A DNA stretch of 45,228 bases from an uncultured bacterium (GTDB taxonomy: Bacteria > Omnitrophota > Omnitrophia > Omnitrophales > Aquincolibacteriaceae). The translations under genes were made by a program, and so were the position numbers. This document shows, piece after piece, positions 19,930 through 45,228 of the stretch (the first letter of the stretch is position 1; each line of letters opens with the position of its first letter). The notes under the pieces are model-generated. The model had not been told where the DNA came from. It saw nothing but the letters and a program-made list of their open reading frames with translations, and ran no database searches. The stretch lies in NCBI GenBank assembly GCA_964349955.1, contig CAYGIT010000001.1:1-45228 (forward strand), written 5' to 3'.

Positions 19930-20414
19930 AAGACCTGATACTGGGAAAGGACTTCCTGGCGTTGATTAAAATCCAGACGATCAATCAAAAGAATTCCGTC
20001 CAGATGGTCCATTTCATGCTGGATGATGCGGGCAAAGAATTCCCGCAATTCTGCCGTGATGACTTCCCCGAACCGGTCCTGATACCGCACCTTGATTTTT
20101 TTTGCCCGCAGCACTTCCCCCTGAATGCCGGGAAGGCTAAGACAACCCTCGGAGCCTAATTCCCTGCCGGAAGAATGAAGAATTTCAGGATTCACAATCA
20201 CATGCTCTTCGCCCTTTTTGACCGTAGGACAGGCAATCAGCACACGTTTCGAAACCCCGATTTGCGGCGCGGCAAGCCCCACCCCGTCTTCGACATGCAT
20301 GGTTTCGATCATGTCCTCAAAAAGCTTTTGCTCAGCCTCCCCAAACTGGGTCAGCCGCTCCGCCTTGATCTTAAGAGCCGGATTCGGATAAGTAAGAACT
20401 TTCAGAAGTGCCAT
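19926..20414 (-). CDS. def: Peptide deformylase
   Basis: 162 aa with GVGLAAPQIG, EGCLSLPG, and HEMDHLDG metal-binding motifs. Confidence 0.96.
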   Translation of the reverse strand: MALLKVLTYPNPALKIKAERLTQFGEAEQKLFEDMIETMHVEDGVGLAAPQIGVSKRVLIACPTVKKGEEHVIVNPEILHSSGRELGSEGCLSLPGIQGEVLRAKKIKVRYQDRFGEVITAELREFFARIIQHEMDHLDGILLIDRLDFNQRQEVLSQYQVL

Positions 20415-20421
20415 ACCCTAA

Positions 20422-20430
20422 ATTTTATCA
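20422..20430 (-). promoter_or_regulatory. Candidate extended -10 promoter element for def (TGaTAAAAT)
   Basis: The minus strand reads ggtaTGaTAAAATttagggtATG. The hexamer ends 7 nt before the def ATG. No Shine-Dalgarno at a functional distance. Confidence 0.35.
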
Positions 20431-20472
20431 TACCCCCGCCGCCCCCGTCATCCTCGAAAAAGGATGCTCGCT

Positions 20473-20656
20473 CTCGAAGTCGTGCAGCAGAATTTTCCGG
20501 ACTCCGGCAGACGCGCTCCAGCTTCGGCAAAAGTAAGCCCGCGGCGGGTGCGGACCCTCCGCGCTCCCCTGCGGGGCCGCGGGTTCCACACCCACCCCGG
20601 GCAACTTTTGCACGAAGCTTCCGCGCGCCCTGCCTCCGTCCGGAAAATTCTGCTGC
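20473..20656. repeat. Mosaic palindromic repeat, module A (long imperfect hairpin closed by a perfect 19-bp inverted repeat)
   Basis: gcagcagaattttccggac (20484-20502) is the exact reverse complement of gtccggaaaattctgctgc (20638-20656). The 135-nt interior continues to pair: ggcag/ctgcc, cgcgc/gcgcg, agcttcg/cgaagct, gcaaaagt/acttttgc, cccgcggc/gccgcggg. Confidence 0.85.
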
Positions 20657-20694
20657 CCCGGGCTCTTTTCTTTTTTCAAGCCCTTGGGCCGAGG

Positions 20695-20867
20695 CCGGCA
20701 AGGAGGGAAGCTTCTCCGGAGGCAGCTAACGGAACCGTCCGGAGCTCGGTCCCGCCGTTTTGTGGCGGGTCCGGACGGTGAGTTAGCAGGGAGTCGTTCG
20801 CCGCTGGAGCGAACGAACTCCCGGTGCCGCAGGGGAAGCTTCCCTCCTTGCCGGCACGACCACGACC
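20695..20867. repeat. Mosaic palindromic repeat, module B (perfect 20-bp inverted repeat enclosing two hairpins, plus a right-hand tail)
   Basis: ccggcaaggagggaagcttc (20695-20714) is the exact reverse complement of 20835-20854. The interior folds into hairpin B1 (20726-20786, apex cccgcc-gttttgt-ggcggg) and hairpin B2 (20789-20822). Positions 20757-20867 are about 93% identical to the reverse complement of 45118-45228. Confidence 0.85.
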
Positions 20868-20907
20868 TCGCGCAGTCTTTGTTGTACTAGCTGGAGAAGC
20901 GAGCGTG

Positions 20908-22962
20908 TTAGAGGATGTTGAGAGGATCGACGTCGAGGGCGTAGGCAACGTCGGAGGGTTTTTTGAGGGTGTCTATGGCTTCGCGGACGAGTTGAGTGAC
21001 GTCCTGATTGAGCGGGAGTTTGAGCATGACATGCCAGCGGAAATGGCCGCGGAGTTTATAAAATGGGAGCGGCGCAGGGCCGATGATTTCGAAAGTGAGG
21101 GAAGCCGATGACGCTTCGAATGCTTGTTTCAAGCCCTCCCGGAATTCGCGGGCGAATTTGTAGGCTTTGTTTTCGTCGTGCGAGCGGATGATGACATTGA
21201 TCAGGCGCTTGAAAGGCGGATAGCCGTATTGCTCGCGTTCTTTGGCTTCGTGCTGATAAAAATTCGGGTAATCGTGTTTTTTGGCGAAAACAATGCTGGG
21301 ATGCTCCGGAGAGAAAGTTTGAATGAAAACGCGCCCGGGATTCTTTCCCCTTCCGGCCCGGCCCGCCACCTGGGTCATCAATTGAAAGGTCCTTTCGGCG
21401 GAACGAAAATCCGGAAGGCTCAATCCGACATCGGCCAGAACTACCCCGACCAAGGTCACATGGGGGAAATCAAAACCTTTTGCGATCATCTGGGTGCCGA
21501 TCAAGATATCGATTTGCTGGTCCCGGAATTTTTTAAGGATTTCTTCATGGGACCCTTTCTTGCGCACGCTGTCGGCATCCATACGCGCGATCCGGGCCAC
21601 GGGAAAATGCGCGGCCAGTTCGCTTTCGACTTTTTCCGTGCCGAAACCGGTGAACCGCAAAAGCGGCATCCTGCATTGGCTGCAGATGGCGGAAGCTTTT
21701 TTCTGGAAGTTGCAATAATGACAAAGGAGAATATCGGATTGTTGGTGAAAAGTGAGCGAGACCTGGCAGGAAGGGCAGGATTCCACCAGGGCGCATTTGG
21801 GGCAGCTCACATGGGTTGAAAAACCCCGGCGGTTGAGCAACAGGATAGTCCCCTCTTTTTTCCTGAGATTGGTTTCGATTTCCTCGAGCAAACGCAAACT
21901 GAAAAATCCTTTTTTGCGCGGTCCGGACAAATCCTTGAGATCGATCACATGCACTTCGGGCATGTCTTTTTCGTCAATGCGGGTCGCAAGCCTCAATAAT
22001 TCAACATTTCCGATCTTCGTTTGATACATGGTTTCAAGCGAGGGGGTCGCGCTTCCCATCAGAAAAAGCGCGTTCTCCTGTTCCGCGCGCCAGGTGGCGG
22101 CGTCTCGGGCATGATATCGCGGCGTTGTTTCCTGCTTGTACGAGCCTTCATGCTCTTCATCCATAATCAAAAGCCCGAGATTAGAAACCGGCGCAAACAC
22201 GGCGGAGCGTGGTCCCAAGACCACCTGGCATTGTCCCTTTTGAATTCTTTGCCAGGCTTTGAAGCGTTCGGAGTCTGAAAGTTTGCTGTGAAGGATTTCC
22301 AGGCTCTTGCCAAAGTGGAGAATAAAAAAACGCCGGATTTGTTCGGTCAAGGCGATTTCCGGAACCAGGCAAATCGCGGACTTCCCTTTTTTAAGCACTT
22401 CCCGGATTGTGCGAATATAAAGCTCGCTTTTTCCGCTACCAGTGACGCCGTGCAGAAGAATGGGTTTGGGATGGGGATTTTCAAGAGATGGCACTATTTT
22501 TTCAAAAGCCGATTTTTGATCGGGCGATAAGGCCAGATCGACCGGCGGGATGAGCGCGTTCTCTGCTCCTTCGTCGAAGTCCTCCGCCGGCTTCTTGCCA
22601 TATTTCACCCATTTGGGCAGCGCGTTTTCAATTGCCTCGCCCCAGGAGCATCCATAATAAAGGCTGATTTTTTTGGTGAGGCCAAGAATGGTGGCGGAAA
22701 TTACCGGGGTCTCATCCAGAACGGCGGAAAGGGATTTTAATTTTCGCAATTGATTTTCATCGACGGGAGGAATTTCGGGCAAAGCCGTGACGTAGCCCAC
22801 GATCTCCCGGTTCCTGAACGGCACGCGCACCCGCGCGCCCACCCGGATTTTGGGTTGAAGTTCTTCGGGCACGGTGTACGTGAAAGGACCGGGAATCGGG
22901 AGCGGAACGGCGATTTCCGCGTAGGCACCCGCGAGAATTTTTTCAGGAGAGAAAATGGGCAT
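20908..22962 (-). CDS. priA: Primosomal protein N' (replication restart helicase PriA)
   Basis: 684 aa with HGVTGSGKSE Walker A, MDEEHE, CPKC...CPSC...CHYC...CSQC zinc-binding insertion, and GRAGRG. Confidence 0.95.
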   Translation of the reverse strand: MPIFSPEKILAGAYAEIAVPLPIPGPFTYTVPEELQPKIRVGARVRVPFRNREIVGYVTALPEIPPVDENQLRKLKSLSAVLDETPVISATILGLTKKISLYYGCSWGEAIENALPKWVKYGKKPAEDFDEGAENALIPPVDLALSPDQKSAFEKIVPSLENPHPKPILLHGVTGSGKSELYIRTIREVLKKGKSAICLVPEIALTEQIRRFFILHFGKSLEILHSKLSDSERFKAWQRIQKGQCQVVLGPRSAVFAPVSNLGLLIMDEEHEGSYKQETTPRYHARDAATWRAEQENALFLMGSATPSLETMYQTKIGNVELLRLATRIDEKDMPEVHVIDLKDLSGPRKKGFFSLRLLEEIETNLRKKEGTILLLNRRGFSTHVSCPKCALVESCPSCQVSLTFHQQSDILLCHYCNFQKKASAICSQCRMPLLRFTGFGTEKVESELAAHFPVARIARMDADSVRKKGSHEEILKKFRDQQIDILIGTQMIAKGFDFPHVTLVGVVLADVGLSLPDFRSAERTFQLMTQVAGRAGRGKNPGRVFIQTFSPEHPSIVFAKKHDYPNFYQHEAKEREQYGYPPFKRLINVIIRSHDENKAYKFAREFREGLKQAFEASSASLTFEIIGPAPLPFYKLRGHFRWHVMLKLPLNQDVTQLVREAIDTLKKPSDVAYALDVDPLNIL

Positions 22963-24795: not shown

Positions 24796-25427
24796 CCGGC
24801 GAGAAGTTTTACCGCATCCGGAAGCCGGTTCACAATATAATCAGGCTGAAGTTCCGGAGTCAATTTTAATTCGTCCGATTTTCCATGGCCGGTGCGAACC
24901 AGGATGGTCCGGATTTTGAAACGCTTGCCGGCCTCGATATCGGTCAGTTTGTCGCCGATGAAAAAAGTTTTCTTGCGGTCAAAACGGATTCCTTTCACGG
25001 CTTTTTTGAAGAGGCCGGTCTCGGGTTTCCGGCATTTGCAGCCCGCCTGCTTGCCGTGCAGGCAAAAATAGGAGGCCCTGATTTTGATTCCCCGTTTTTT
25101 GAAAACACCCAGCATTTTTTCATGAATGTCCCACAAAGCCGGTTCCGGATAAACCCCGTCGCCGATGCCTGCCTGATTTGAAATTAAAATGATTTTATAA
25201 TCCCGCTCCGTCAGTTTTTTTAGCGCCGACAGGGCGCCTCTTTCAAACCGGAATTGCTTCCAGGTCTTGATGTAATCCCCGATCGGATCGACGTTGATGA
25301 CCCCGTCACGGTCGATAAAAACCAGGCGGTTAATTTTAGCTTTGTCATCCTGAGGCGTTCTATGCCGAAGGATCCCCGGCTTAGATCCTTCGCTTCGCTT
25401 AGGATGACAGGCTGTTTTAGTGGGCAT
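24792..25427 (-). CDS. gmhB: D-glycero-D-manno-heptose 1,7-bisphosphate phosphatase (HAD-IIIA)
   Basis: FIDRDGVIN HAD motif I, CLHGKQAGCKCRKPETG zinc/HAD motif, and IGDKLTDIEAG. The only canonical starts (25427, 25472) lie upstream of palindromic element R2, so R2 is read through. Confidence 0.82.
   Translation of the reverse strand: MPTKTACHPKRSEGSKPGILRHRTPQDDKAKINRLVFIDRDGVINVDPIGDYIKTWKQFRFERGALSALKKLTERDYKIILISNQAGIGDGVYPEPALWDIHEKMLGVFKKRGIKIRASYFCLHGKQAGCKCRKPETGLFKKAVKGIRFDRKKTFFIGDKLTDIEAGKRFKIRTILVRTGHGKSDELKLTPELQPDYIVNRLPDAVKLLAG
25344..25408. repeat. REP-like palindromic element R2 (GTCATCC-type)
   Basis: gtcatcctgagg...cgaaggatc-cccggctta-gatccttcg...cttaggatgac. Outer and inner arms are inverted repeats. 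Located at the DegT/gmhB junction. Confidence 0.75.
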
Positions 25428-27312: not shown

Positions 27313-27396
27313 GTCATTCCCGAGAACCCTCTGCGAGGGCTGCAAAAAGACTGATCGGGAATCCAATTGGATCCTCCGGTCAAGCCGGAGGATGAC
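27313..27396. repeat. REP-like palindromic element R3 (GTCATCC-type, two sub-hairpins)
   Basis: gtcattcccga...ccctc-tgc-gaggg...tcgggaat, then atcctccgg-tcaag-ccggaggat-gac. It fills almost the entire spacer between the sugar-transferase stop (27401) and the GT2 start (27308). Confidence 0.75.
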
Positions 27397-34631: not shown

Positions 34632-34666
34632 GCAGTTTCGAATGGCGACATCGCTTCGCGGATCAA

Positions 34667-34755
34667 GGTCGTGCCCGTGCCGTCAAGGAGGGAAGCTTCT
34701 GGACTTGCCAGCACGAGCACGGCCGAGCCGTCCGGAAAATTCTGCTGCACGACCC
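34667..34755. repeat. Mosaic palindromic repeat, copy 3 (collapsed hairpin plus 23-nt terminal motif)
   Basis: 34667-34699 matches 30/33 to the reverse complement of 20835-20867. 34704-34755 matches about 49/52 to the reverse complement of 45088-45139. It contains gtccggaaaattctgctgcacga at 34730-34752. Confidence 0.85.
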
Positions 34756-34771: not shown

Positions 34772-35998
34772 CTACGACCCGGCAGTTTGTAAATGGCGCT
34801 GCGATAAATAAGCGGCCTGGAGGCCCAGGAGATACCAGAAAGTCATGGCGGCTTGTTCATTATGGAGGACCGTGTCGATCAGGGCAAAAACGAGAAAACC
34901 CAGGAGGGCACTTAGTAGTCCCAAAGGAAGAAGCTCTTTCCCGGGCGCGGTGTTGCGCTTTTGGGCGAGGCGTTTGAAACTCCACAGGAATTGACCGCTC
35001 AAGAAGGCAAGAAATAATAAAAGGCCCGGCAATCCGGTTTCTGCGGCAAGCTGCAAGTAGCCGTTATGGGCATAATAATTCCGGACACGCCAGTTTTTCG
35101 TGGTGTCATAACGCTGGTGTGCAACTGCATAGGTATTGATCCCGGTTCCGGTCAAAGGTTTTGCGCGAATGACCGAAACCGCGCGGTCCCACAAGTAATA
35201 GCGTTCCACCAGCGATTGTTCCTTGCGCTCCGCGTCGAGATGAATAAATGTGCTTTTGGGAAGCGCGCGAAAAAGAGTGACGGCGAGGATCATGCCCAAA
35301 AGCAGCAAACGCCAATTTTTAAAATAGAAAAGCAGAAAGACAAAACTCGTGCCAAAAGCAAGCATGGCGCCACGGGATTTCGTGAAGTAAAGAACCACGC
35401 TGCCGGAAAGAAATAAAAAAAAGAGAATGCCCGAAAGCCAGGCCGGGTATTTCAGTTTCCAGGCGCGTTGCGCAATCATCAGGGCAACCGGCAATGTCAA
35501 AATCAAATAGCAGCCCAGAAGCCCGTAGGTTTTGAAGGAAGCGCTCAACCTTATCCCCGACCCGGAATATTGGGCCGCAATATGGCGCAGAAAATCTTTG
35601 CCTAGCCATGCCTGCCAGGCTGCATCCAGGATGGTGAGCGCCAGCATTGCGATAAAAAGGTTTTCCCATTTTTTCAGATCCCCGGCCCGGAAACTATCCG
35701 CGGCGATGAGAAAAATCATGCTTTGCTGGGCAATCTTGAAAATACCCCGGAAGCTTTGAGGGCGGGCTTCCGACCAGAACCAGGAAAGAATGCACCAGCC
35801 CATAAATGCCGCCAAAATGAAAAGAAGGGCTTTGGGTGTTTCCACCTGCCAGGATTTGCGGCTGATTTTCCAGCCCAGCCAGAAGAGAAGGGCGGCGACA
35901 AATGAAATTTCCGACAGCGCGGAAGAAAAGGAAAACGAGGCCCAAAGCACAAGCAAACCGAGGACGGTTCCTTTTCTGAAAAAATCGGGTTCAGGCAT
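34772..35998 (-). CDS. O-antigen ligase / Wzy_C-domain polytopic membrane protein
   Basis: About 10 predicted TM segments and the YYAHNGYLQLAAETGLPGLLLF Wzy_C signature. The ORF is open to 36052. The ATG at 35998 gives an 8-nt overlap with the upstream GT2 stop. Confidence 0.8.
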   Translation of the reverse strand: MPEPDFFRKGTVLGLLVLWASFSFSSALSEISFVAALLFWLGWKISRKSWQVETPKALLFILAAFMGWCILSWFWSEARPQSFRGIFKIAQQSMIFLIAADSFRAGDLKKWENLFIAMLALTILDAAWQAWLGKDFLRHIAAQYSGSGIRLSASFKTYGLLGCYLILTLPVALMIAQRAWKLKYPAWLSGILFFLFLSGSVVLYFTKSRGAMLAFGTSFVFLLFYFKNWRLLLLGMILAVTLFRALPKSTFIHLDAERKEQSLVERYYLWDRAVSVIRAKPLTGTGINTYAVAHQRYDTTKNWRVRNYYAHNGYLQLAAETGLPGLLLFLAFLSGQFLWSFKRLAQKRNTAPGKELLPLGLLSALLGFLVFALIDTVLHNEQAAMTFWYLLGLQAAYLSQRHLQTAGS

Positions 35999-36881
35999 AG
36001 GAAGCTCGGGAATCCCTCTTTTGATTTGATTTGCGATGTTGAAGGGCCTCAAAAAAACCTTTCATGAGCGCTGTTTTCCCGCGCAAAAGCGAAAAGACGA
36101 TCCGGAAAGGAAGAAAAAAAAGATGAGAAATCCAGAAGCGAAATCCTGAAAAATTTTTCCACATGAAAAGAAAACGGTTTCGCTGGGCCAATACCTGGAT
36201 TTTTTCTTCCCCAAATTTTTTTTTAAAACTGGCCTGGCCGAGATGGTAGACAATGCTCGTGGGTTCATAGCAAAGCTTCCAGCCCCGGCGGGCGGCCCGG
36301 AGGCAAAGATCCACGTCTTCGTAGATCCCCGGCTGAAAGCGGTCGTCATAGCCTCCCAAAGCAAGAAATTTTTCCCTCGAAAACGCTCCGAATCCGGAAG
36401 AATAGGTTTCCGATGCTGTCCCCGCTTCCCTTTCATAACCCGGGTAGCGCGTATCGGACGAGAAAAGCCCCCACCGGATCGCTGCCCGGTTGCGTCCCGC
36501 TTCAATGCGCTTGCCGTCAAAACTCATGACCTGCGGGGAAACGAGAAAAGTTCCGGGATCTTTGGCGAATCTTTCGACCAGAGGATCCACGAATCCGGGA
36601 TCCACCCGGATGTCATTGTTGAGAAGAATGACGACCGGCTCTGATATCTGGGGAAGATAATCGTTGTAAGAGCAAAGCACCCGGTTTTGGGGAGCATACA
36701 CAATTATAGCTTCCGGGAAGTGAGAAGCGGCATAGGCAAGCCCTTGATCCGTGCTTCCATTGTCCAAAAGCGTTATCTTCGTTCGAGATGCTGCCCGTTT
36801 GGCGGCTTCGGCAATGCCGGGAAGGCACTGCGGCAAAAGGTCTTCTCCATTGTAATTTAAAATCACAATACGAACTTCCAT
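35991..36881 (-). CDS. Glycosyltransferase family 2
   Basis: 296 aa with VRIVILNYNGEDLL...LLDNGSTD...LLNNDIRV GT-A motifs. Confidence 0.85.
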   Translation of the reverse strand: MEVRIVILNYNGEDLLPQCLPGIAEAAKRAASRTKITLLDNGSTDQGLAYAASHFPEAIIVYAPQNRVLCSYNDYLPQISEPVVILLNNDIRVDPGFVDPLVERFAKDPGTFLVSPQVMSFDGKRIEAGRNRAAIRWGLFSSDTRYPGYEREAGTASETYSSGFGAFSREKFLALGGYDDRFQPGIYEDVDLCLRAARRGWKLCYEPTSIVYHLGQASFKKKFGEEKIQVLAQRNRFLFMWKNFSGFRFWISHLFFLPFRIVFSLLRGKTALMKGFFEALQHRKSNQKRDSRASYA

Positions 36882-45062: not shown

Positions 45063-45081
45063 GGCTAATTCCGTCTCATTT

Positions 45082-45228
45082 CTCGAGGTTCGTGCAGCAG
45101 AATTTTCCGGACGGCTCGGTCGTGCTCGTGCTGGCAAGGCCAAAAGCTTCCCCTGCGGTACCGGGAGTTCGTCCGCTCCAGCGGCGAACGACTCCCTGCT
45201 AACTCACCGTCCGGACCCGCCACAAAAC
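45082..45228. repeat. Mosaic palindromic repeat, copy 4 (inverted, truncated by the window end)
   Basis: tcgtgcagcagaattttccggac (45090-45112) is identical to 20480-20502. The reverse complement of 45118-45228 matches 20757-20867 at about 103/111 positions. The window ends inside the apical loop of hairpin B1. Confidence 0.85.

Follow-up and report, generated by a model that had tools for sequence, protein, structure and literature searches.

Short repeats of the kind described here are already known as MITE, BIME and BOX elements. Correia elements (CREE/NEMIS) of Neisseria are a MITE family in which a single interior is bounded by 26-bp termini and the duplicated target is TA, and their inverted ends have been shown to act at the RNA level, in the manner of an RNase III-type site, a stabiliser or part of a terminator. 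The window, meaning the whole 45,228-nt stretch of DNA that was analysed, is contig 1 of a metagenome-assembled genome (MAG) of an uncultured Omnitrophota bacterium (2.64 Mb, 249 contigs, 91% complete). It contains copies of a sequence motif, hereafter M, that had been predicted to mark the ends of a repeat family and to be a protein recognition site. We conclude with high confidence that M is the terminal and junction module of lineage-specific, non-coding mosaic repeats of the MITE/BIME type.

The exact 23-mer GTCCGGAAAATTCTGCTGCACGA was present in the window in the three copies originally predicted (Table 1), whereas none was expected (100 shuffles). A fourth copy at 20638-20660 (+) was also found, as a 20/23 match rather than the 19/23 match claimed: its first 19 bases were identical to the 23-mer and three of the last four differed. 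The proposed common outer flank, ctcgaRg, was likewise recovered (ctcgaag-tcgt at 20473 and ctcgagg-ttcgt at 45082). M was defined as the 19-base core GTCCGGAAAATTCTGCTGC of the 23-mer, which is often followed by ACGA. Copies were not confined to the window. With up to three mismatches, the 23-mer gave 25 matches in the genome versus 0 for the reversed control, and the 19-mer was found in 23 exact copies and five copies with one or two changes (0–1 matches for reversed controls). The description of M as a terminal motif of a repeat family therefore held genome-wide, as a motif of both ends and junctions. Every copy was located within one of 28 repeat islands of 61–625 bp each (5.0 kb in total). 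All but one of the islands lay between genes according to rough gene calls, and the open reading frames across them were overlapping and spurious only. Nineteen of the 28 islands abutted contig ends, which indicates that this repeat family breaks the assembly.

In 40 relatives, M was not multi-copy, and only isolated matches with one or two mismatches were detected, coding-like by eye. In 596 Gb of genomes, the exact 19-mer was found once in each of 14 records from unrelated lineages, and in a metagenome collection on ten contigs, again with a single match per record. Judged from these sequence comparisons, the invariant 19-mer is specific to this genome, and a degenerate homologue is present in the sister genus g8 of the same family (see below). 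Further resemblances were considered and rejected. Similarity to SRP RNA (GUCCGGAAGGAAGCAGC) was limited to eight common bases and was taken as coincidence, and the sigma-54 and IHF consensus sites misfitted by eye in both spacing and sequence.

At all loci compared, the element interior was located 5' of M, with M read as GTCCGG.... The basic unit consisted of an outer module (O), a reverse M (M'), a palindromic module (A, X or a short X), a forward M and an inverted outer module (O'). Extra units, composed of a T-rich linker, an X module and a forward M, were appended to the basic unit, so that arrays hold both inverted and direct M copies. The resulting array grammar was O-M'-{A|X}-M-(T-X-M)n-O'. 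The window island at 20466-20905 followed the order O, M', A, M, T, X2, decayed M, O', and the X2 region at the contig end was 93% complementary to 20757-20867 (inverted repeat I1). Contig 103 (C103) carried four M copies with three modules and C37 three M copies with two modules; in both, M was present as direct repeats. Inverted M pairs were observed at 20484-20510/20630-20656 (27 nt, 89%), C15:23771/23856 and C222:1947/2114, whereas the copy at 34730 was unpaired. Further copies of module A were located on C222, C98, C237 and C41. The tip of module A (GGTCCCTCCGCNTTCCCCTGCGGGGCCGCGG) also recurred in a genome of another genus (G006; L077, L083) within a different palindrome of approximately 300 nt, so palindrome tips seem to be exchangeable modules.

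Table 1. Repeat modules in the window, with positions, strands and local context.
Feature	Position	Strand	Remarks
Outer module O (GCTCGCTCTCGAAG; consensus CTYGAGMAAYGAGC on motif strand)	20466..20479	-	Outermost conserved part, adjoins def promoter region
M, exact 23-mer (19-mer core 20484-20502)	20480..20502	-	Left inverted terminus of module A
Module A, long imperfect palindrome, tip CCCTCCGCGCTCCCCTGCGGGGCCGCGG	20503..20637	.	Fold; M-side arm homologous to g8 subterminal region
M, exact 19-mer core	20638..20656	+	Right terminus of module A, joint to T-rich linker
T-rich linker (cccgggctcttttcttttttcaagcccttgggccgag)	20657..20693	+	Joins M(+) to next X; recurs after M in C37, C41, C103, C174, C222
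Module X, subtype X2	20694..20855	+	Closing stem, junction, two hairpins; covariance-model match 20697-20852, 165 bits
Array right end: stem extension and linker	20856-20874	+	Within 20856..20905
Decayed M (gtctttgttgtacta)	20875-20889	+	Array right end
Inverted O module (gctggagaagcgagc)	20890-20904	+	Island end 2-3 nt from priA stop codon
Short X element, internally deleted, stem halves only	34666..34729	+	No M on left side
M, exact 23-mer, solitary terminal copy	34730..34752	+	19 nt from stop codon of Wzy_C-like gene (34772-36052)
Outer module O (ctcatttctcgaggt)	45075..45089	-	13 nt from ATG (45062) of PMT_2-like gene
M, exact 23-mer	45090..45112	-	Exact match
Linker, stem and X2 module	45113..45228	-	Ends at contig end; covariance-model match 45133-45228, truncated

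M is a discrete module whose inner neighbours were of at least four kinds, as were its outer ones. By hand tally, the inner neighbours were the left arm of A (about six copies), the right arm of A (three), the X stem extension (about 16) and the left end of X (three). The outer neighbours, also tallied by hand, were O (13–14), the T-rich linker (six), an ACGCCC-type sequence (seven) and another module (one); the six M copies followed by T-rich linkers were internal joints. Inverted O modules were present at both ends of C37 and of C1:20466-20904, and no O without an adjacent M was found in the genome. An empty target in the form of a perfect palindrome of two O halves (GCTCGTTGCTCGAGCAACGAGC) with CTCGAG duplication was considered and discarded, since no genome site matched it with up to four mismatches.

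M had further been predicted to be more constrained than the interior of the modules. Its information content was 1.92 bits per position compared with 0.41 inside and 0.15 outside, in a sample that was selected by the motif and is therefore biased. Because of this bias, ends were located instead via the neighbouring stems and A arms, which yielded a neighbour-anchored set of 40 module ends, five of which were linker joints while the other 35 were scored for M. M was carried by 25 of these 35 ends (20 exact, five with one to four changes); at the remaining ten it was wrecked (at least eight changes) or absent, as at 20875-20889 and in C14, C17 and C58. Divergence from the consensus was 2.3% for M (25 M-bearing ends) versus 5.4% for the stem anchors (all 40 ends), and the linker between M and the stem anchors varied in sequence and length. 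M is thus an all-or-none module, invariant beside a hypervariable linker. The predicted constraint stood far above that of the adjacent linker, but relative to the neighbouring stems the difference was only about two-fold, and part of the invariance may stem from recent spread alone. M was non-palindromic and without covariation, unlike every X stem. Together with the unpaired copies, the lack of covariation favours recognition of the sequence over pairing. The core CGTCCGGA, claimed to recur inside the modules, did occur more often than expected (nine versus 1.8 occurrences), but these occurrences were otherwise explained: three were M preceded by C, three were the P3 stem of an X subtype and three were coding. 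Since other X copies carried CTTTGAA/TTCAAAG in P3, CGTCCGGA there reflects stem covariation rather than conservation of a site.

A similarity search of the relatives with DNA gave weak matches to the interior of X, which had the same architecture but different stem sequences. RNAalifold analysis of 11 copies from five genomes predicted 53 pairs, and compensatory changes were seen at 40 of these. The same copies were used to build a covariance model, which detected X in 33 of the 96 genomes compared within the order; a single genome carried up to 30 copies, and E-values went down to 1e-39 among the matches listed. In 96 distinct X copies, 96.5% of cells paired, and all 53 pairs showed double changes. 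None of 500 shuffles reached the observed values, and sliding the partners abolished the signal. G-U pairs outnumbered A-C mismatches (111 versus 36), which indicates that one strand is the folded one. The orientation of X relative to flanking genes was unbiased, with eight copies in the same and eight in the opposite orientation based on crude ORF calls. The whole window was without a match in Rfam 15 at gathering thresholds, and permissive Rfam scans (20400-20950 and the G034 copy) gave chance-level hairpin matches only. X is a strongly covarying fold with a strand-specific signature in a third of the order's genomes that is nameless in Rfam.

The outer parts of X elements differed between lineages. 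Each X copy of genome G089 had its own closing stem, with no common terminus, and X copies of genomes G034 and G030 had lineage-specific outer layers. Two solitary X1-type copies (G000:C8:3273-3426 and C19:9481-9592) likewise had their own closing stems, without M, O or linker. The closing stem of the C8 copy (GGCCGGAAACTTCTCCTGC) was M-like with three mismatches, and closing stems in G008 and G034 were also M-like, a hint that M was derived from a strand of an ancestral closing stem.

The spacer between priA and def (20415-20907) was approximately 493 nt long in this genome compared with 14–67 nt in six relatives with conserved priA-def order, which identifies the island as an insertion specific to this lineage. 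No target-site duplication was found at eight complete islands; the longest common flank word was 4–6 nt, equal to the null level. Nor was there a conserved target dinucleotide at the outer edge of the copies in this genome, a feature raised in the original prediction. No arrangement of a reverse M, a gene and a forward M, as in an autonomous element, was detected in the assembly. The assembly had no PF01609 match and no tblastn match to an IS1634-like transposase. As the assembly is 91% complete, absence of an autonomous element is not proven.

In genus g8 (genomes G065 and G007), X formed the tip of a 330–400-nt palindrome. From outside to inside, the g8 elements consisted of a direct repeat, a tip (CTGGTAATTCCCGG...), a block (CAGAATTTCCC.../...GGAAAATTCTGC), a stretch resembling the A arm, and X. 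The A arm with M (GGAGCGCGTCTGCCGGAGTCCGGAAAATTCTGCTGCG) aligned with g8 GGAGCGCG-CTTCAGGATGCCGGAAAATTCTGCTCCG with a score of 41–42 compared with a shuffle maximum of 26, and local alignments of the A arm and M with the best g8 ends had z = 12–14. The M-homologous block was located 33–36 nt inside the g8 element ends. In five g8 copies (L187, L188, L189, L193 and L194), perfect direct repeats of 10–13 bp abutted the tips, and the g8 tip matched CTAGTGATTCCCG, the left end of a G007 gene for an IS1634-family transposase (L196, G007:C27; 553 aa, NF033559 E = 1.7e-111). Target duplications of variable length have been reported for IS1634 and IS1549 (PMC2266710). The duplications and the IS-matching tips indicate that the g8 elements are transposon-borne. 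Behind its left tip, the IS1634-like element of G007 was devoid of an M-like block, which places M in the cargo palindrome and means that it is not a proven transposase site. The g8-type tip CTGGTAATTCCCGG was absent from the genome studied here.

Four Y1_Tnp genes (PF01797, RAYT/IS200-like) were present in the genome (C51:3976-4314, C188:1043-1366, C52:11215-11550 and C52:14857-15195), each flanked by its own short repeats. A second repeat family, of GTCATCC...GGATGAC hairpins (TGTCATCCTGAGCGAAGCGAAGGATCT), had 49 copies genome-wide with up to three mismatches. Loci of this type included 25344-25408, 27313-27396 and 20445-20469 in the window and G000:C51:2900-3100, beside the Y1_Tnp gene of contig 51. 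This family resembles CGTC-tagged, Ssn-related motifs (PMC11893778). The window also contained a perfect 34-nt inverted pair (GAGGGGACAGGCAGAAAACCGCTGCCTGTCCCCT; 23524-23557/23655-23688), 97 nt apart and REPIN-like, at a two-gene junction.

M kept its sequence, was non-palindromic and free of covariation, occurred in solo and direct copies, and had a terminal homologue in g8, which makes recognition by a protein the most economical reading. To that extent the predicted protein recognition site stands, although not in the two forms proposed for it, a RAYT cleavage guide and a regulator operator. We hold it at about even confidence that M is a DNA sequence read by a mobilising or recombining protein, as a subterminal binding block and not a cleavage tip. 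Such a protein would mobilise or recombine the elements, and candidate readers are a transposase of a subterminal site or an accessory DNA-bending factor. Propagation or homogenisation would then be limited to copies with intact M, and ends without M would decay freely.

A role in RNA, where the inverted M pair would form a perfect 19–25 bp duplex at the base of a hairpin and serve like the Correia ends as an RNase III-type site, stabiliser or part of a terminator, is unlikely. It agrees with the stable fold of the 433-nt window island (z = -13.4), in which the M pair closes module A, with the T run within 20 nt after nine of 28 forward M copies (hand tally) and with the strand-specific fold of the X core indicated by its G-U excess. 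A duplex, however, requires pairing and not a fixed sequence, whereas M was invariant while true stems covaried, and M was also solitary and in direct repeats. X showed no orientation bias, in the window the T run and priA/def transcription are on opposite strands, and a terminator scan of 20300-21000 found none. Without any dedicated protein, M could be a stretch of identity for recombination or gene conversion that shuffles the modules and becomes homogenised itself by concerted evolution. The variety of neighbours around the same M (at least four types on either side), the hypervariable inner linkers, the direct M copies in the C103 and C37 arrays and the state of M copies, either perfect or wrecked, would all fit, but M, at 19 bp, is a short substrate for homologous recombination to be efficient. 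Moreover, the longer and equally conserved stems would be better substrates and yet were not junctions, and a second genus has retained the block in the corresponding relative position; overall, we regard this explanation as rather unlikely. It is quite unlikely that M is the recognition and crossover site of an integron-like, site-specific system that strings modules A, X1 and X2 together, in which X would be a strand-specific functional element of single-stranded DNA or RNA across the order. If true, this would make M the hallmark of a new class of modular repeat assembly guided by a protein, rather than the end of a decayed MITE.

The RAYT form of the original prediction, in which M is a REP-like site for a RAYT (Y1) or for another single-strand nuclease such as an Ssn-type GIY-YIG, was not borne out, and we consider it improbable. 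The genome does encode the four Y1_Tnp proteins, single-stranded DNA would be in keeping with the X fold, strand-specific regardless of gene orientation, and three window copies read CGTCC..., comparable to CGTC-tagged REPs and the NTS motif (PMC11893778). However, the C before M was present in some copies only, M had neither its own REP-type hairpin nor an internal dyad, and the Y1 genes were flanked by other repeats, with no M or island nearby. Equally, M did not hold up as an operator or promoter element of downstream genes (def, the PMT_2-like gene and others), for which we see very little probability. Two window copies are indeed located 65 and 27 nt upstream of first genes (def and the PMT_2-like gene, respectively), as had been noted, and several further terminal copies face gene starts. 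Nevertheless, the island borders faced about 17 gene starts and about 12 gene ends (hand tally, rough gene calls), six M copies were internal joints, and the neighbours were unrelated housekeeping genes. The sole sigma-70-like site upstream of def (20451-20422) was outside the element, and M was confined to a single lineage at genus level, although the genes themselves occur universally. Most likely, M is not a gene regulator, and such motifs should not be annotated as operators of adjacent genes.

Under the preferred reading of M as a sequence read by a mobilising or recombining protein, the 19-mer is a defined bait for the protein that moves or organises structured Omnitrophota repeats. Learning the identity of this reader could show whether the repeats are selfish DNA, a host-recruited structure, or both. 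M also gives access to a repeat family that interrupts the assembly of this genome and has widened operon junctions that are normally tight.

Compared with known systems, an architecture that combines layered termini containing one near-invariant 19-mer with exchangeable structured tips and a core that covaries across the order is undescribed in the literature searched. As in MITEs, the elements were short, non-coding, dispersed and multi-copy, with terminal inverted repeats; target-site duplication and a cognate autonomous element were not found in this genome. As in BIME- and BOX-type repeats, defined modules were arranged in variable order and number between fixed boundary modules. Like Correia elements, the repeats are short, non-coding and multi-copy, are found in intergenic spacers beside the starts and ends of genes, and form a long hairpin through pairing of their conserved inverted termini. 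They differ in their longer, layered termini (O, M and stem extensions), swappable interiors, arrays and lack of an observed duplication. The g8 elements, as derivatives of IS1634-family IS/MITEs, hold homologues of M and the A arm, whereas the copies in this genome are without the 14-nt tip, duplications and an IS1634-like gene. With BIMEs and REP/REPIN-RAYT systems, the family shares a conserved unit in alternating orientation, linker motifs, an intergenic and lineage-specific distribution and the presence of Y1 genes. Unlike REP/REPIN-RAYT systems, M is no palindrome and has no GTAG/CGTC-tagged hairpin, and the Y1 genes are beside a different repeat. BOX elements of Streptococcus pneumoniae (boxA-boxB(n)-boxC) likewise have fixed ends and variable internal modules and are non-coding with no known transposase. 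The likeness to BOX is one of architecture, whereas X is a 150-nt multi-helix fold conserved across the order.
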